Assembly (NCBI GenBank): GCA_964517275.1
Contig: CAZFBL010000002.1
Coordinates: 1-62,382, forward strand
DNA: 62,382 nucleotides
From: an uncultured Candidatus Saccharibacteria bacterium
GTDB lineage: Bacteria; Patescibacteriota; Minisyncoccia; Portnoybacterales; UBA2143
Reading direction: 5' to 3'
Both the position numbers and the translations under genes were made by a program. Below, piece by piece: positions 85-62,382 of this stretch. How positions within the stretch are numbered: position 1 is the first letter of the stretch; each line of letters starts with the position of its first letter. Below the pieces are notes generated by a model. It worked only from the letters and a program-made list of their open reading frames with translations, was not told where the DNA came from and made no database searches.

Positions 85-3000
85 ATGAAATTCACTCATC
101 TACACGTTCACTCCCATTACTCTTTGTTGGATGGACTGGCTAAAATAGACCAGCTACTCGATGCTTGTCAGGAATTAAAAATGCCTTCTATTGCTTTAAC
201 CGACCACGGCAATATGTACGGAGCGGTTGAGTTTTATCAGAAAGCCAAAAAAAGAGGCATTCGGCCGATTATTGGCTGCGAGATTTATATAGCTCCCCAT
301 GGCATGGACCAGCGCCGGCCGAATATCGATAATAAGCCTCACCACTTGGTTATCTTAGTCAAAAGCAAAGAAGGCTATCGTAATTTAGTCCAATTAACAA
401 CCAAAGCCCATTTAGAGGGGTTTTATTACAAACCGCGGGTTGATAAAGAGCTGTTAAGGAAACACTCGGCCGGATTAATCGCCTCCTCGGCCTGTCTAAG
501 CGGAGAAATTCCCAAAGCTGTCATCAACGGAAGAGCCGAAGAAGCGGCCAAACTGGCTTTGGAATATCAAGATATTTTTGGAGCGGGTAATTTTTACTTG
601 GAGCTCCAACATCACCCCGGTTTAGAGCACCAAGAATTGGTTAACCAGACTTTAATCAGAATCAGTCGTCAGCATAAAATCCCTCTAATTGCCACTAATG
701 ATGTCCATTACGTCAAACCGGAAGACGCCGAAGCCCAGGACGTCTTAGTCGGTATCCAAACCGACAAAAGACTATCAGATGAAACCCGCCAGACAATGCG
801 TAATAACGACTTCTCGCTGCGACCGATTGAACAAATGGTTAAAGACTTCAAGGAAGTGCCGGAGGCAATCAGCAACACTCAAAAAATTGTCGAAAAATGT
901 AATTTTGAATTTGAATTAGATAAAATCCAATTGCCATATTTTAAAGTGCCGAATGGCCAAGAACCAAACGAATATCTTAAAAAACTCTGCCAGGCCGGTT
1001 TGGAAGAACATCAGTTCGAAACTCCGCTCCAGCAGGTTCTTGAGCGGCTTGACTACGAATTGGGAGTAATCAACAAAACCGGCTTCGCCTCTTATTTCCT
1101 AATTGTCGCCGATTTCGTCAACTGGGCCAAATCTAAAAACATTGTCGTCGGGCCGGGCCGGGGCAGCGCGGCTGGCTCTCTAGTCGCCTATCTGCTGAAG
1201 ATAACCGACATCGACCCCTTAAAATACAATCTTCTTTTTGAGCGATTTCTTAACCCTGAGCGCATCTCAATGCCCGACATTGACTTGGATTTTGCCGATA
1301 ACCGACGTGAGGAAGTGATCAATTATGTTAGGAAAAAATACGGCCAAAATCACGTTGCTCAAATTATTACCTTCGGGACAATGGCCGCCCGGGCGGCTGT
1401 CCGCGATGTTGGCCGGGTCCTTGATTACTCCTATAATTTCTGCGACCAGATAGCCAAAATGATTCCCTTTGGTTCCACTCTGGACAAAGCTGTCTATCAA
1501 TCGCCGGAACTGCACAGCGCATATGAGTCAGACGAGAATACTAAACGCTTAATCGATATGGCTATGAAATTAGAGGGGGTTGCCCGCCATGCTTCCACTC
1601 ACGCGGCTGGCGTAGTTATCACCAAACAAGACATCAACCATTCTGTCCCCTGTCAGCATCCGACTCAAGATGACCAAACCGTGGTTACCCAATATGAAAT
1701 GCATGCCGTTGAGGATTTAGGGCTGCTTAAAATGGACTTTCTGGGCCTAAGAACGCTGACCGTCATTCAAAATACTCTCAACCAAATCAAGGAGCAAACC
1801 GGTCAAGAAATTGATTTAGCCAATCTCCCGCTAGACGACCGAAGAACCTTCCAACTATTTCGGACAGCCAATACAACTGGCGTTTTTCAACTGGAGTCGG
1901 GCGGAATGAAGAAAAACCTTAAAGAACTTCGGCCTAACCAATTTGAAGATATTATTGCCATGGTTGCCTTGTACCGACCAGGCCCGATGGAATTTATTCC
2001 CGAGTTTATCGCTCGTAAGCACGGCTACAAAAAAGTTAAATATCTTCATCCATTACTTAAACCTATTTTAGAAAACACTTACGGGGTGATGGTTTACCAA
2101 GAACAACTAATGAGGATGGCCCGGGAATTAGCCGGTTTTACCCCCTCCGAGGCTGACGTCCTAAGAAAGGCAGTCGGTAAAAAGATTAAAAAGCTCCTAG
2201 ATGAACAGAAAGAAAAAATGATTGACGGAATGACTAACAACCAGATTGAGCCAAGAATAGCTAGCCAAATCTGGCATATGGTCGAACCATTCGCTCAATA
2301 CGGCTTTAATGCCGCACATGCCACCTGTTACGCTCTGATTGGTTATCAAACCGCTTACCTAAAATCTCATTACCCAACTGAGTTCATGGCCGCTCTTATG
2401 ACTTCTGAACAAAATGATATTGAGAGAATCGCCTTTCTGGTCGATGAATGCCGACAGATGAAGATAAAAGTTTTACCGCCCAACGTTAATCAAAGCGACC
2501 AGGATTTTAGCAAAGCGGCCAACGCGATAATTCATTTCGGTCTGAACGCAATCAAAAACGTCGGCCGTCAGGTAGTTGAAAGTATTGTTCAAGAAAGAAA
2601 ACAAAACGGTTCTTTCAAATCAGTCGCCGATTTTATTGAACGAGTCCAGTCCAGAGACCTGAACAAAAAATCGCTAGAAAGTCTAATCAAATGCGGAGCC
2701 TTAGATGACTTCGGGGAGAGGAACCAGCTATTGGCTTCCTTGGACCAAATGCTCGGTCTGGCTCACGAAACCCAGCGAGCTAAACAAAATGGCCAAATCA
2801 GCTTGTTTGCCGGCCAAGCTGCCGACAACCTGCCGTCTCTAAAATTAGCCGCGGCCGCACCAGCCGGCAAAAAAGATTATTTAAGCTGGGAAAAAGAACT
2901 ACTCGGTCTCTATCTTTCAGAGCACCCTCTAAAAGATTATCAGGAACGATTAGTCAAATTAGCTTCTTCTTGTCAGAATCTTTCCCGAGAGCAAGTTGGC

Positions 3001-33156: not shown

Positions 33157-34176
33157 TTACAGAATCATTTTTAAGAGCGCCATCCGGACAAAGAGACTAT
33201 TCTGAATCTGCAGTTCAGAGTAAAGCGGAACTTTCTTAATATCCGGAAAGTCTCCTGGCCGGAAAGACAAATCCATAACCATTGACTCCTTGGGCAGCCT
33301 TTCCAGGACCTGGTCATTGACTGAATATTTATCCATCAATTCCTGATGTGAAAACATTTTATCCCTGACAACAAAGTTATCGCCGCCCAAGATTTTACCC
33401 GGAATCCGAGACTGATAGACCACCTGGACCTGGCCGGCTATCTCTCTCAAATCGTCAACTTCGATAAGCTGAGGGCCGTCCTTAGTCAAGTAATAATCCT
33501 TAATGTCCTGGCCCAGTTTCAAATTATCCGGCGCGACCGCGTATATTTTTACATTGTAATTAGCCAACAGATAACACAACGACCTGATTTCCCGATTGGT
33601 GAATAAATTGCCGGTCAAAGCTATCGACAAGCCGTCTATCTGTTTGAAAATATATCGAATTGTATAAAGGTCGGCAATCGCCTGGGTTGGGTGCTGATTG
33701 GCCCCATCGCCAGCGTTGATAACCGGCACATAGGAGACTTCCATAGCTCTCTTGGCTGCCCCGGCCAATGGATGACGCAAGACAATGACATCAGGCATAA
33801 ACAAACTTAACCCTCTTATTGTATCTTCCAGGGCTTTCTCCTTAGCCGTACTGGAAAATTCCTGCTCACCGCTAAATGAAGTGACCACCTTACCGCCGAG
33901 AGTACAGATGGCTATCTCAAAGGAAGCTCGGGTCCGGGTACTCGGCCGGTAAAAAACAGTAATCATATTCTTCCCTTTGACTTCTTTTTGCATCTCTGTC
34001 CTTATTCTCTTTCTTTTTTTTCTGTCTTCAGCCGAAAGAGCGCCTTCGGCTTCTTTTCTCTTCCAAATATCTTCTTGAACCATCCAGTTAGCCTTTTCGT
34101 CGGTCAATCCGAAAATTCGCTCAAGCGTCTCCGGGTCAAACTGCTGAGCCTCAATAATATGGCGCAATTCTTTCAT
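33157..34176 (-). CDS. Divergent aspartate carbamoyltransferase-like protein
   Basis: PSTRTRASFE, RHP, INAGDG, QHPTQAIADLYTI and RMALL retained; QKER and HPLP motifs missing. Confidence 0.85.
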   Translation of the reverse strand: MKELRHIIEAQQFDPETLERIFGLTDEKANWMVQEDIWKRKEAEGALSAEDRKKRKRIRTEMQKEVKGKNMITVFYRPSTRTRASFEIAICTLGGKVVTSFSGEQEFSSTAKEKALEDTIRGLSLFMPDVIVLRHPLAGAAKRAMEVSYVPVINAGDGANQHPTQAIADLYTIRYIFKQIDGLSIALTGNLFTNREIRSLCYLLANYNVKIYAVAPDNLKLGQDIKDYYLTKDGPQLIEVDDLREIAGQVQVVYQSRIPGKILGGDNFVVRDKMFSHQELMDKYSVNDQVLERLPKESMVMDLSFRPGDFPDIKKVPLYSELQIQNSLFVRMALLKMIL

Positions 34177-52802: not shown

Positions 52803-54980
52803 CTACCTGTCAGATGCCGTGTTAATAAAGCATCCTCCTCCGTCTCCGCCTCCGCCTCTGCTTTTAACTGAAGAAGACAAAGTGGTTAATCTCTTGTCAT
52901 TGCCATAGCTTGTTCCTTTGTCATTTCTGGCGACCATTCGGAAATGATAGGTCGTCCCCGGATTCAATCCGGCAAGCTCAGCGCTGACTGGCACTACGCT
53001 CGTTCCTGAACCAGTCTCTGTTTCAGCTGTACTCGAGCCGTAACCGGTAGTTAGACCATACTCAAAGTAGTAAGCAGCTTCCACTTTGCCGTTATTAGGG
53101 TTAACTGTACCATTAAGAGTGGCCGAGTTGGCAGTCACTAAAGTAGCGCTGCCGGTAGTCGCAATAGGTGAATTTATTAGAGAGAGAACAGCTTTATAAG
53201 CATTAGCTCTTCCGTTAGTAGCCACCTTGCCGATTAAGGACGGAACAACATCTACATTGTCCTCTATGATTTCCTTTATCTCCAGATTGCTTAAGCCGGA
53301 ATCAAATGCTTGAATTAACAAGCAAAGACCGAGCAGATGTGGAACAGCCATCGAAGTACCGTCCATAAAGGCGTATTCATCGCCATCAAAAATATCCGAG
53401 TGGACGGTAAATTTCAGATCGTCAAAATAAAAGCCGTCTTCAGTAACGGAGGAATCTGTGGACAGGCGGAATCTGAAATAGATAGTAGATTCGCCGTCAA
53501 AATCTGCAAGGTCGATAATCAGAGGAATCCACATTCCAGCGGACGAACCGGAGAAATATCCACTATACCAATTCAGCAAATCATCAGAGGCCTCAACGTA
53601 CAACCTGTCGCGATTACGCTCGCAGGCTCCATTAATTTTAAATCCAACTATCACGCCACTATACGAAGAGAAGTCCAGAGGACCAATTCTGGCCCAGGAA
53701 TCAGTATCGTTCTGATAATTCCCAAACGGACTGTCGGTCAGTGAATGGGGACTGCTCCAAAATTTACTAGAGGTAATTCCCCAAGTATTGTTAATCCCGC
53801 CGGTTGTCCAGCCGGACATATTCCCGTCATCAAAATCATCATCCCAGATGACCGGCCTTGATGGGACAGTACTGTAAACATTCACTCCCGGTCCGGCCAA
53901 ATCCACGCTGGCTGCTCCGTAATTTGAGAATCCGGCCAGCTCATCATTTTGGCCGGTGGCGGCTACAGCTATGATATTTGGACAATCATAACTGGCCGGA
54001 TAGTGGGGACTATCGTCATTGTCGTTAGCAGAATTTCCAGCCGAGCAAACAACTACCGCCGAAGAAGCCTCAATCGCCTCTTTAAAGAACTGGCTAAAAC
54101 CATCGCCGCCAAAACTCATATTTATGGCTGTCAGCCGAACCTGAAGCGCATTAGCGTATTCAACCGCCTCAATAATATCCGAAATCCATCCGCTGCTACT
54201 GGCATCCAAGACTCTAATCGGAACTATCCTGGCTTTCCAGCAAACTCCGCTTAACCCGTAAGCGTTGTTTCCTTCCGCGGCCGCTGTGCCGGCTACATGA
54301 GTACCGTGTCCCGCGTAATCCATAGAGTCGTTATCATTATCGACAAAATCCCATCCATGAACGTCATCAACATATCCATTACCGTCATCGTCAAGCCCGT
54401 TGCCGGGTATCTCATCTGGATTGGTCCAGATATTATTTGATAAATCAGGGTGGTTGCAATCAATCCCGCTATCCAGGACGGCGCTGATGACTGCCTGACT
54501 GCCGGTACATTGAGAACATACGCCCCAAGCCTCGGGAAGGTCCATATCAGCATCAGCCGCGCCGGTCGTCCCGTTCACTTCCTGACCGCTATTGTGCAGT
54601 CCCCACAACTTGGAAAAATCGGGATCATTAGGAACGACATCGGCGGAATAACGATAATTCGGCTCGGCATGCACTACATTGGGACTTTTGTCATAAACCG
54701 CCAAGGCCTCCTCCACGCTTAACCCGGGAGGAAGCTTGACCAATTGGACTCCGCTTTTAAGGGTTTTGGTGGCTCTAAAGTCATATTCTTCCTGAAAATA
54801 CATGGCCGCCGCTGCCCGAACTGGAGCCCGGTACTTTACTAACACCTGACCGGCTTTGTAATCCGGACTAACAATCTGATTGTCAACATGGCCATCGGCC
54901 ATACCCGCAAAGGCAGGCGTTCCTATGAAGATAAGGACTACAGCCAGAAACCAACCAATAAGAATCTTCGTCTTTTTCAT
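52803..54980 (-). CDS. Secreted S8 (subtilisin-like) serine protease with prodomain, inserted beta-sandwich, FN3-like domain and a truncated CFI-box-CTERM-like tail
   Basis: Signal peptide; triad VLDSGID, GHGTHVAG, GTSMA; oxyanion SAGN; tail GGGGDGGGCFINTA. Confidence 0.92.
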   Translation of the reverse strand: MKKTKILIGWFLAVVLIFIGTPAFAGMADGHVDNQIVSPDYKAGQVLVKYRAPVRAAAAMYFQEEYDFRATKTLKSGVQLVKLPPGLSVEEALAVYDKSPNVVHAEPNYRYSADVVPNDPDFSKLWGLHNSGQEVNGTTGAADADMDLPEAWGVCSQCTGSQAVISAVLDSGIDCNHPDLSNNIWTNPDEIPGNGLDDDGNGYVDDVHGWDFVDNDNDSMDYAGHGTHVAGTAAAEGNNAYGLSGVCWKARIVPIRVLDASSSGWISDIIEAVEYANALQVRLTAINMSFGGDGFSQFFKEAIEASSAVVVCSAGNSANDNDDSPHYPASYDCPNIIAVAATGQNDELAGFSNYGAASVDLAGPGVNVYSTVPSRPVIWDDDFDDGNMSGWTTGGINNTWGITSSKFWSSPHSLTDSPFGNYQNDTDSWARIGPLDFSSYSGVIVGFKINGACERNRDRLYVEASDDLLNWYSGYFSGSSAGMWIPLIIDLADFDGESTIYFRFRLSTDSSVTEDGFYFDDLKFTVHSDIFDGDEYAFMDGTSMAVPHLLGLCLLIQAFDSGLSNLEIKEIIEDNVDVVPSLIGKVATNGRANAYKAVLSLINSPIATTGSATLVTANSATLNGTVNPNNGKVEAAYYFEYGLTTGYGSSTAETETGSGTSVVPVSAELAGLNPGTTYHFRMVARNDKGTSYGNDKRLTTLSSSVKSRGGGGDGGGCFINTASDR

Positions 54981-60485: not shown

Positions 60486-61415
60486 ATGTATCAACTAATT
60501 ATTATCGGAGCCGGGCCGGCCGGCTTAACAGCCGCCCTCTTCGCCCAGCGTTACCGAATCAACTATCTATTAATCGGCCAACCAACCGAAGGTGCTCTTA
60601 ATCAGGCTCATCTAGTTGAGAATTATCCGGGGGTTAAACCAATGAGCGGTCCCCAATTAATTAAAGAATTTCAAAAACATTCAGCCCTTAAAATCAAACG
60701 AGAACAAGTCAAGCAAATCTTGCCCAACAAGCAGAAAAAAACTTTTCAGATAATCACCAATCAAGGCCGCTACCAAAGTCAGGCCATCATTCTGGCTCTG
60801 GGCATGAAAATCAGGAAATTAGGCATTAAAAACGAAGAAAAATTCTTACACAAAGGAACTGCCTATTATACTCCCAAATTTCTGACTAAAGGAATATCTT
60901 ATTATACCCCCGATGATGTACGTTTTTTAAAAAACAAAATTATAGCAGTAGTTGGCGGCGGCGACACCGCTTTAACGACCGCCCTCAAATTGGCCGACCA
61001 AGCCAAAAAGGTCTATTTAATCCATCGCCGCGATGAGTTCCGGAGCGCTCCTCTGCTAGCCAAACAAGCCAGAGCCCAAAAAAATATAGAAATTATCTAC
61101 AGCGCTCAAGTAAGCGAAGCCCAAGGCCAAAAGTCCTTATCTAAAATTATCTTAAATACAGAACAGGAATTAGCCGTTAATTACCTGTTTATTGAAATCG
61201 GCGGCGTGCCCAATGTTCTTCTCTGTCGAGACTTGAAATTAAAGATGGATAACAACTTTGTCGCTACTGACCAGAGACAAGCAACCAGCCTGCCCGGCCT
61301 GTTCGCGGCCGGCGATATGACTAATTATCCGCTTAAACTGATTGTCACCGCCACCGCCCAAGGAGCGATGGCCGCGACCAGCGCCTACGATTACCTGAAA
61401 ACCCTTGACAAGTAA
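60486..61415 (+). CDS. Thioredoxin-reductase-fold FAD/NADPH oxidoreductase lacking CxxC
   Basis: GAGPAG, VENYPG, VGGGDTA, HRRDEFR, GLFAAGD; SYYTPDD where SYCATCD is expected. Confidence 0.88.
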   Translation: MYQLIIIGAGPAGLTAALFAQRYRINYLLIGQPTEGALNQAHLVENYPGVKPMSGPQLIKEFQKHSALKIKREQVKQILPNKQKKTFQIITNQGRYQSQAIILALGMKIRKLGIKNEEKFLHKGTAYYTPKFLTKGISYYTPDDVRFLKNKIIAVVGGGDTALTTALKLADQAKKVYLIHRRDEFRSAPLLAKQARAQKNIEIIYSAQVSEAQGQKSLSKIILNTEQELAVNYLFIEIGGVPNVLLCRDLKLKMDNNFVATDQRQATSLPGLFAAGDMTNYPLKLIVTATAQGAMAATSAYDYLKTLDK

Positions 61416-61564
61416 TTTTAGGGGTATAAGCTGGAATAAAAGTCGTTAATGATAGCTTCCAATCAGTATGGGCAAAACAGATTGGAAAATTAAACCGCTA
61501 AAAAGATAACTTGAGAAGGGGCGGTTTTTTTATTTTAAAAATATAGATACTAATTTTCAGAGCC

Positions 61565-61697
61565 GCCTCGGCCAAAGTTTTTACCAATTGAAACCTTTGG
61601 CGGAGGCAGGTCGAAAGTGACTGACCCTAAGTCCTCCCCATCCTAGCTAGGAGGATAACAGGGAAACCGAGGCCAGGAGGACCTACGGCGAGTCACT
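61565..61697 (+). ncRNA. Candidate structured cis-regulatory RNA (family not recognised)
   Basis: Multiple stems, GG-GAAA-CC tetraloop, CCUAAG/UACGG receptor-like loop; 40 nt before an SD-led ORF. Confidence 0.5.
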
Positions 61698-61737
61698 CAA
61701 AACAATCTTAAAAAGAAAGGGGGTGTGAAAATATAAA

Positions 61738-62382
61738 ATGAAGAGAATTATAATTAGTTTGTCAATCGTCGGCTTAGTGGCCGGAGTTACTTTAGGCATC
61801 ACCGGCGCTTATTTCACCGATGAAGAGCCGATTGAGAAGAATGTTTTTCAGGCGGGGACTCTTGATATCCGACAAGGGGTAAACGACTTGGGCAATATGA
61901 CCCTTTCCGGCCTAATGCCCGGCGTAGCCACGGAGCCGCAAAAGCTGACCATGGGCAATAACGGAAGCCTACACGCAGTAATCGATAAAATCGAGGTGAC
62001 TTCTTTGGCTAACGCTGATGTCAGCGGCACATCAAACGATGTCACCGCCGCCAACTACGCTGATATGGTAAAAGTGACTATTTCGGACGAGGTCGGCCGA
62101 CCTCTTTGGAAAGGAACGCTCGGTGATTTATACGGCGTCGACAAAGACAACGCTGTTGACGGCACCGACCGGGTTTTCTTGGCCAAACAAGGCAGCGGCG
62201 AAAATTACACGACCCGCGACTATTGGTTCACTTTTGAGCTGAACGAAGAGGTTACGGACGCTTACCAAAACGAGGGAGTGGAAGCGACTATCAGCGTTAA
62301 CGCTACCCAGATTAAAGATAATGAATTTGACGCGGCTGAAAGATTAGTCGCCAATCAAAATAACGATGACGGCTGGGACTGG
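61738..62382 (+). CDS. TasA/CalY-family secreted protein with a SipW-type signal peptide (partial, runs off the window)
   Basis: MKRIIISLSIVGLVAGVTLGITGAYFTD...NVFQAGTLDI; SD AAAGGGGGTG; open to base 62382 (absent from the ORF track because there is no stop). Confidence 0.8.
   Translation, partial: MKRIIISLSIVGLVAGVTLGITGAYFTDEEPIEKNVFQAGTLDIRQGVNDLGNMTLSGLMPGVATEPQKLTMGNNGSLHAVIDKIEVTSLANADVSGTSNDVTAANYADMVKVTISDEVGRPLWKGTLGDLYGVDKDNAVDGTDRVFLAKQGSGENYTTRDYWFTFELNEEVTDAYQNEGVEATISVNATQIKDNEFDAAERLVANQNNDDGWDW

Follow-up and report, generated by a model that had tools for sequence, protein, structure and literature searches.

A conserved three-way-junction RNA in the leader of a TasA-like fibre gene of Patescibacteria

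In this study, we analyzed a 62,382-nucleotide (nt) stretch of DNA from an ultrasmall, uncultured Candidatus Saccharibacteria bacterium (assembly GCA_964517275.1, contig CAZFBL010000002.1), referred to here as the window, and in particular the leader of the TasA/camelysin-like gene that begins at position 61738. We found that positions 61616-61697 are a real conserved structured RNA, a three-way junction on a long imperfect stem. An earlier sequence-only reading had described 61565-61697 as one riboswitch-like unit. The 3' two-thirds of that region, 61616-61697, are conserved beyond the window's own clade, but the hairpin in its 5' part (hairpin 1) lies outside the conserved unit and is absent from L025 and L021, two other lineages that carry the junction (orthologous loci are given L numbers). 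We rate the element as an uncatalogued cis-regulatory leader RNA for which no prior description was found. Its function is read tentatively, with a probability of about 0.35, as that of a cis-acting post-transcriptional leader module, a stable 5' fold with Shine-Dalgarno (SD)-like sequences that would affect mRNA stability or ribosome loading. The parts of the element are as follows.

61616-61697 (+ strand): conserved 82-nt structured domain, the three-way junction
61616-61622/61691-61697, 61625-61626/61687-61688 and 61628-61629/61684-61685: junction helices P1, P1b and P1c
61631-61637/61676-61682, 61642-61644/61649-61651 and 61661-61662/61667-61668: junction helices P2, P3 and P4
61650-61655 and 61676-61681 (+ strand): GGAGGA repeats inside the junction

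About 20 distinct orthologous leaders were collected via protein relatives of the TasA-like gene. The same leader as in the window was found in L018 and in L004, the latter being identical in its leader to L009-L011. Over the junction, both L004 and L018 matched the window at 81 of 82 positions, and over hairpin 1 at 41 of 43. Identity for L004 and L018, respectively, was 39/40 and 37/39 at 61698-61737, 107/133 and 118/133 from the promoter to the T-run, and 15/28 and 21/28, plus indels, in the spacer 61537-61564. The coding sequences matched at 552/645 and 126/174 positions (72-86%). Because identity from hairpin 1 to the AUG exceeds coding-sequence identity in these two loci, this segment is far more constrained than the protein. 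A homologous domain was found at the same leader position, right after AAAGGTCG, in L025 and L021, whose proteins are 56% (L026 and L027 as L025) and 60% identical to that of the window. A covariance model built from hand-trimmed cores, R1, scored the window at 83 bits, L025 at 71.8 and L021 at 54.8; L004 and L018 are homologues as well. The matches to R1 were confined to leaders of orthologous genes, in three lineages.

All 23 modelled pairs were standard in every sequence of the model-fitted alignment. Compensatory change, with both sides altered, was found at five of the 23 pairs, and change to G-U at three. As an example, P1 reads AGUGACU/AGUCACU in the window, GGUGGUU/AACCACC in L025, and GGUGGCU/AGCCACU in L021. 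Slid controls paired at only 26-51%, and RNAalifold gave the same junction structure. This covariation comes from three independent lineages only, with an alignment fitted to its own structure. The invariant unpaired and junction sequence comprises CCUAG..UAGGAGG and AGG..CC.AGG, plus two conserved mismatches in the long stem. A conserved covarying fold with invariant unpaired nucleotides, here in a small sample of three lineages, is what is generally expected of an aptamer. In a neighbour-joining tree of the N-terminal domain of the protein, the element-bearing lineages occupy two different major clades; therefore, the junction module either is ancient and has frequently been replaced, or moves from leader to leader. 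L028, the sister of L025, carries a larger domain, closed by a UUCUCU/AGAGAA helix, that has CCUAA..UUAG and AGGG..CGGGAGGAGAC in common with L025. This domain is probably a diverged larger relative; it was not scored by R1 and is left out of the counts.

The region might instead hold chance hairpins of a G+C-rich patch, or a short leader peptide, with no function of RNA structure. The 82-nt element by itself folds only modestly beyond shuffles (z = -2.05), and a short open reading frame (ORF) starts at a conserved GUG in P1, with 9 codons in the window (GTG 61617 to TAG 61644-61646, MTDPKSSPS) and L021, and more in L025. However, this GUG is buried in P1, the covariation lies in P1 and P2, and the element has 98.8% identity where the coding sequence has 72-86%. 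We find this explanation scarcely credible. The peptide from GUG 61617 was rejected as a candidate, as neither its length nor its sequence is conserved (about 38 codons in L025; a Pro-to-Gln change in L004).

The 151-nt stretch that was folded reached -60.9 kcal/mol (z = -4.6 against dinucleotide shuffles), and its reverse strand was slightly more stable (-67.6 kcal/mol, z = -5.0). Because the reverse strand folds slightly better, folding energy alone cannot fix the strand. This result, together with the near-palindromic arms and the 32-35 bits that R1 also gives to the reverse strand, would suit an element acting at the DNA level, in which the inverted repeats serve as an operator or recombination site. 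In contrast, the changes between lineages preserve pairing, by G-U and compensatory substitutions, and not the sequences of the arms; the G-U pairs are A-C mismatches on the opposite strand; and the domain lies within the predicted transcribed leader, co-oriented with the gene. A DNA-level element is therefore considered very unlikely, and the G-U changes and the orientation of the gene point to a putative RNA of the + strand. The C61595-to-T change in hairpin 1 of L018, which gives a G-U pair, would fit the same strand; the other changes of hairpin 1 in L004 and L018 concern the loop and the terminal pair. The core 34-mer occurs once in the window. No further copy was found with R1 in the 62-kb window, in the element-free leaders or in 36 IMG/VR loci, and IMG/VR yielded chance matches only, in two scans by DNA pattern and one by protein.

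The junction stands within a longer leader, in which the following parts were recognized.

61405-61432 (+ strand): probable sigma-70-type promoter, TTGACA (61405-61410), 16-nt spacer, TAAGCT (61427-61432)
61438-61446 (+ strand): weaker first copy of the family motif (AAAAGTCGT), near the predicted transcript 5' end
61457-61487 (+ strand): leader hairpin A, with 11-nt arms TTCCAATCAGT and ACAGATTGGAA
61492-61536 (+ strand): terminator-like leader hairpin AAACCGC/GCGGTTT, with a 22-nt loop, then T7-A-T4
61565-61607 (+ strand): hairpin 1, with two 13-nt arms, a central GxG mismatch and a 17-nt loop; clade-specific
61608-61614 (+ strand): AGGTCGA, the window copy of the leader motif AAAGGTCGR, separating hairpin 1 from the junction
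61698-61737 (+ strand): A-rich linker with SD-like GGGGGTG (61719-61725), up to the start codon
61738-62382 (+ strand): 5' part of the TasA/camelysin-like gene, with ATG at 61738; it runs off the window

The promoter and the terminator-like hairpin had both been proposed before. The sequence TTGACA-N16-TAAGCT is present and its box is conserved in orthologues, although a simple consensus scan made no call there. The orthologous leaders share a -35 box of the CTTGACAAG type, followed 16-17 nt later by TAnnnT, even where the upstream genes differ, and this recurrence supports the proposed promoter. It overlaps the final codons of an upstream trxB-like gene. In L004, a different gene lies upstream and has a terminator of its own; therefore, hairpin A, the promoter and the leader terminator belong to the TasA-like gene and not to trxB. 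The hairpin and T-run at 61492-61536 were found as proposed; in L004 and L018 their arms and T-run are retained and the loop has diverged. Hairpin A likewise retains its arms with a variable loop in these loci, and the motif copy at 61438-61446 is kept. Neither hairpin 1 nor the junction combines a G+C-rich hairpin with a following U-run, as an intrinsic terminator does: the sequence after hairpin 1 is AGGTCGAAAG and that after the junction is CAAAACAATC, and a terminator scan called neither. A long-range helix masking the SD (61553-61564/61721-61732) was rejected, its 5' arm lying in the diverged spacer and being lost in L004 and L018.

In the orthologous leaders, the promoter is followed by one or more hairpins, then a hairpin with a U-run, then AAAGGTCGR; a hairpin and T-run stand ahead of the motif in nearly all of them. 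AAAGGTCGR was found on the + strand of every orthologous leader, at a distance of 30-290 nt from the start codon and with a second copy in some leaders (for example, 2871-2878 and 2945-2952 in L005, 2460-2467 and 2860-2867 in L025, and 283-290 in L030), with the variants AAAAGTCGR and CAGGTCGA. All exact copies in the fetched loci lie on the + strand in the upstream region of this gene, except for one minus-strand copy within the coding region of L021 (also in L022). The motif usually occupies an A-rich single-stranded linker between the terminator or hairpin and the next hairpin. Directly after it comes a plain non-conserved hairpin (in most orthologues), nothing, or the junction, which always begins 2-10 nt after the motif and always downstream of the hairpin and T-run. 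AAAGGTCGR was rejected as a genome-wide signal, with no enrichment in the window (18 sites vs 11.5 expected), and as a promoter or transcription start, with no -35-like or -10-like box at a fixed distance; the window copy is preceded by GGCGGAGGC. The motif may be a processing or binding site.

Further structures were observed in other leaders of the family. Another structured domain of about 165 nt occurs in a different clade of the same gene family (L002 244-426, L016 977-1197, L023 2771-2952), with the promoter (TGGTATAAT) on its 5' side and AAAGGTCGR on its 3' side. GUCUCCA/UGGAGAC forms its closing helix. The domain has no Rfam match and carries an extra hairpin insertion in L016; its 59 predicted pairs show 0 compensatory changes, the three copies being too alike for covariation. 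The leader of L021 contains, between the junction and the AUG (2845-2990), three direct CACCCCGTTAAA-like and three inverted GTTTAACTGGGG-like copies that form extra hairpins not present in other leaders. The L019 leader, which is without the junction, has at least seven copies of a AGAACCTTGA-like repeat at 2540-3000, and its motif copy reads TTTGGTCGA.

The GGAGGA repeats of the junction belong to a wider pattern. In the 300 nt upstream of the start codon of 17 distinct orthologous loci, GGAGG was eightfold enriched (20 vs 2.5 expected, with 0 of 1000 shuffles reaching 20), and this was strand-specific, only 2 CCTCC being present in the same leaders. Leader terminators are rich in purines in their 3' arms (GGAGAAG-like) and in pyrimidines in their 5' arms. 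No SD-like GGAGG/GGGGG run was found in the 22 nt before the AUG in 16 of the 17 orthologous genes, and AGGAGGA at 61649-61655 and 61675-61681 has no AUG, GUG or UUG 4-12 nt downstream. In the window, only 6 of 57 ORFs have an SD-like core or 4-mer within 22 nt of the start, including the subtilase gene (52803-54980, AAGGAGG), a carbamoyltransferase-like gene (33157-34176) and the TasA-like gene. Judged from these ORFs, the organism seems to use SD sequences rarely.

The two repeats share one pairing partner. GUCCUCC (61631-61637) pairs either with the distal GGAGGAC (61676-61682), as in the junction fold, or with the proximal GGAGGAU (61650-61656). The constrained minimum free energies for proximal and distal pairing were -32.0 and -32.5 kcal/mol in the window, -39.9 and -42.1 in L025, and -50.6 and -46.3 in L021, with gaps of 0.5, 2.2 and 4.3 kcal/mol. 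Every position of the alternative helix (100%) can pair in all lineages. Moreover, AGGUC of the motif is complementary to GACCU of the distal strand in the window and L025, with only 4 of 5 pairs in L021; therefore, the toggle could also alter the accessibility of the motif.

Repeated GGAGGA/AGG motifs and invariant unpaired nucleotides would also fit sequence-specific recognition by an RNA-binding protein, either a global GGA/GGAGG-recognizing regulator or one dedicated to the fibre operon, that controls translation or decay. In all leaders, AAAGGUCGR occupies a single-stranded linker flanked by two hairpins, as a site for a protein or RNase might, and most orthologous leaders have terminators without a recognizable aptamer, suggesting protein-mediated control. 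Against such a site, no candidate protein was identified; no regulator gene is conserved beside the locus, and the upstream genes vary between loci. We consider a protein-binding site unlikely.

The sequence-only reading had called the region riboswitch-like. The proposed stems were all found: GCCTC-G-GCCAAAG (61565-61577) pairs with CTTTGGC-G-GAGGC (61595-61607), AGTGACT (61616-61622) with AGTCACT (61691-61697), (G)TCCTCC (61631-61637) with GGAGGA(C) (61676-61682), and ATCCT with AGGAT. GG-GAAA-CC (61661-61668), CCTAAG at 61626 and TACGG at 61684 are present as well, and these had been taken for a GAAA tetraloop and its 11-nt receptor (CCUAAG...UAUGG). Riboswitches of the GEMM-I type, which bind cyclic di-GMP (c-di-GMP), often have a GNRA loop and receptor, of which the earlier reading had been reminded here. 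Both the window and L025 do have CCUAAG in the 5' strand of an internal-loop region, and a GAAA loop is present in the window. In contrast to the known receptor, the 3' strand reads CCUACGG in the window or CCUGAGG in L025 and L021, with no UAUGG, and the TACGG of the window is two nucleotides out of register with the canonical form. The 5' strand is CUCCAGG in L021 rather than CCUAAG. The GAAA loop, closed by 2 base pairs (bp) in the window, is replaced by GGC-AAA-GCC in L025 and by an A-rich 7-nt loop in L021. The supposed receptor is better described as a helix interrupted by two mismatches (C-G, C-G, CxC, U-A, A-U, AxC, G-C), and its columns pair: the U-A of P1c changes to U-G and to C-G, and the AxC mismatch to G-C in L021. 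A proposed switch between GCCTCGG (61565) and CCGAGGC (61667) also failed to hold up. The two are complementary, but a 7-bp match is close to chance (about 0.5 expected in a G+C-rich 130 nt), and it can be traced in one clade only, with no covariation there.

Searches for known families were then considered together with the orthologous leaders. Rfam 15 at gathering score returned six tRNAs only from the whole window and no match to the element. A permissive Rfam search (E ≤ 10) of 61380-61780 (401 nt) gave only chance-level hairpin matches to small RNA and microRNA families and no riboswitch family. Neither c-di-GMP-I (Rfam clan CL00126) nor c-di-GMP-II (RF01786) matched that segment at E ≤ 10 or the window at gathering score. 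These results, with the fold conserved and covarying in other lineages, bear out the earlier description of an unrecognized structured RNA. The permissive search of 19 related loci gave two c-di-GMP aptamers, one tRNA and nothing else. The aptamers are c-di-GMP-I-UAU (RF03168) at L017 1148-1225 (+ strand; 62 bits, below the 65.9-bit gathering score, E about 1e-11) and c-di-GMP-II at L014 848-933 (+ strand; 57.7 bits, above the gathering score of 53.5), both promoter-proximal, before the leader terminator, on Patescibacteria-type contigs. Because these leaders carry known c-di-GMP riboswitches, the TasA-like gene family is a c-di-GMP riboswitch target, in line with the earlier suggestion that fibre genes are targets of second-messenger riboswitches. 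No account of riboswitches or leader RNAs for surface-fibre genes of Patescibacteria was found in the literature; for surface proteins and pili, control by c-di-GMP riboswitches is known (PMC6200980). As a separate observation, L017 has at 1350-1405 a perfect SD (AAGGAGG) and, 7 nt on, a 5-codon ORF (MASSI, stop). This ORF, a possible leader-peptide attenuator, overlaps with a second leader terminator, in its 5' arm.

The junction could itself be the aptamer of a new riboswitch class, for which c-di-GMP or another nucleotide messenger would be the obvious candidates. The ligand would fix one GGAGGA/UCCUCC pairing and thereby alter how the TasA-like mRNA is translated or processed, or how stable it is. 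A multi-stem junction with covarying stems and invariant junction and internal-loop nucleotides, the lack of an Rfam match, two mutually exclusive near-isoenergetic folds in all lineages, and the aptamers ahead of the orthologous genes in L017 and L014 all favour this possibility. Like the element, c-di-GMP-I (GEMM-I, including the RF03168 UAU variant) and c-di-GMP-II are cis-acting 5' untranslated region (UTR) RNAs of surface or fibre genes, and both classes occur in leaders of true orthologues. The element differs from them in sequence and in architecture, with its three-way junction and long mismatched stem; neither model matches it at E ≤ 10, its loop and receptor are not conserved, and it stands after the leader terminator, in a different slot from the known aptamers. 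That slot is filled by a simple hairpin in most orthologues, and only three lineages carry the junction. No expression platform is evident either. No U-run follows the element, the 3' flank of L025 consists solely of unstructured A/U as far as the AUG, P1 is retained in each of the two alternative folds, and the SD and AUG of the window are only partly paired in the predicted ensemble. As a weak further point, none of the 30 largest ORFs of the window, a small part of the genome, encodes a GGDEF, EAL or HD-GYP protein. Ligand sensing by the junction is hypothetical but possible, and a new riboswitch class is a doubtful but serious candidate. The narrower proposal, that the junction is a third, structurally unrelated class for c-di-GMP (or another cyclic nucleotide) that replaces c-di-GMP-I/II in some Patescibacteria and acts post-transcriptionally by GGAGGA toggling, appears quite improbable.

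The analysis demonstrates a conserved and covarying fold, its place in the leader, two pairings of nearly equal energy and an enrichment of GGAGG; from these we infer a series of functional steps that includes transcription start, termination, 30S binding, processing and stabilization. In this favoured reading, the post-transcriptional module, the junction would be one exchangeable part of a multi-part TasA-like fibre mRNA leader with the order promoter, hairpin A, leader terminator, clade-specific hairpin 1, single-stranded AAAGGUCGR, junction, A-rich linker and AUG. The on/off decision would be taken upstream, at the leader terminator, the step at which two orthologues carry c-di-GMP aptamers, and the junction would act after transcription, on read-through transcripts only. 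One anti-SD-like strand (GUCCUCC) would alternately mask the two SD-like GGAGGA sequences, and this masking would set mRNA stability or ribosome loading, like a 5' stabilizer or STAB-SD. The junction possibly also sets the accessibility of the adjacent AAAGGUCGR site. Described multi-module and tandem leaders similarly have a promoter-proximal terminator followed by a second structured module, with modules swapped between lineages, whereas the AAAGGUCGR and junction modules are of no described family.

The precedent for such a 5' mRNA stabilizer is the STAB-SD of the cry3A mRNA of Bacillus thuringiensis (PMC4113751). As in the STAB-SD, the junction places SD-like sequence in the 5' UTR far upstream of any start codon, where it would not initiate translation, in the long leader of a very abundant secreted structural protein with a probable processed 5' end nearby and a stable 5' structure. 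In contrast to the STAB-SD, the SD-like sequences are embedded in the conserved junction and mostly paired, many other nucleotides are invariant, 30S binding and processing are only presumed, and the organism rarely uses SD sequences. Several observations weigh against the favoured reading. A STAB-SD must be accessible, yet pairing prevails at both GGAGGA repeats in the predicted ensemble (probability of being unpaired about 0.25). A passive stabilizer would not need the invariant non-SD nucleotides CCCUAAG and CCUAGCUAGG or the two conserved mismatches. The changes in the alternative helix are one-sided only and give no statistical support beyond compatibility. In addition, other lineages have plain hairpins without sequence conservation, only three independent lineages carry the junction, and the 3' end of the 16S rRNA lies outside the 62-kb window.

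The gene downstream belongs by its sequence to the TasA/camelysin family, as the sequence-only reading had proposed when it placed the RNA upstream of a TasA-like gene. The fragment in the window has a SipW-type signal peptide at its N-terminus (TIGR04088, 24.4 bits vs a cut-off of 19) and no Pfam match, and the orthologous proteins P0027 and P0016 match PF12389 (Peptidase_M73/camelysin, the TasA family) at 43-47 bits. Full-length orthologues of about 510 amino acids have the TasA-like N-terminal domain and an extra C-terminal domain with only weak squalene-cyclase/TED-like matches. The L009-L011 leaders are identical to that of L004 over the compared 340 nt upstream of the start codon, and their proteins are only 84-88% identical to it, with differences concentrated beyond residue ~215. 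This suggests that the C-terminal domain was recombined or diversified behind a fixed leader and N-terminal domain. The next gene after the TasA-like gene (L023 4679-5890, L025 4652-5920, L019 4657-5865, L021 4615-7419) encodes a product with fn3/He_PIG/Pur_ac_phosph_N, or LTD and Laminin_G_3, domains, and in L023 and L025 also a weak Peptidase_S24 (signal-peptidase-like) match; it may be a SipW-type processing or anchoring partner. The nearest genomes by protein search are metagenome-assembled genomes labelled Candidatus Saccharibacteria and Paceibacterota. The remaining window holds ordinary housekeeping genes of the candidate phyla radiation (CPR), including DnaE, ThrRS, a ribosomal-protein operon, SecY and EF-Tu/G, along with PilM, PolX, PNPase, a subtilase and the CCA enzyme.

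Gene regulation in Patescibacteria (CPR) is almost unstudied. The leader of the TasA-like gene family is modular and unusually elaborate. It combines a 9-nt motif common to all members with a leader terminator and, in some lineages, c-di-GMP-I or c-di-GMP-II aptamers, and at least two uncatalogued structured domains occur in other lineages of this leader family. A ligand-sensing junction would represent a new class of riboswitch, controlling a fibre with a probable role in attachment. A role as stabilizer or ribosome-docking site would mean that SD-like sequences are used beyond start-site selection in an organism largely without SD. In either case, the junction is a concrete RNA to test, and it could become a regulatory part for organisms that lack genetic tools.

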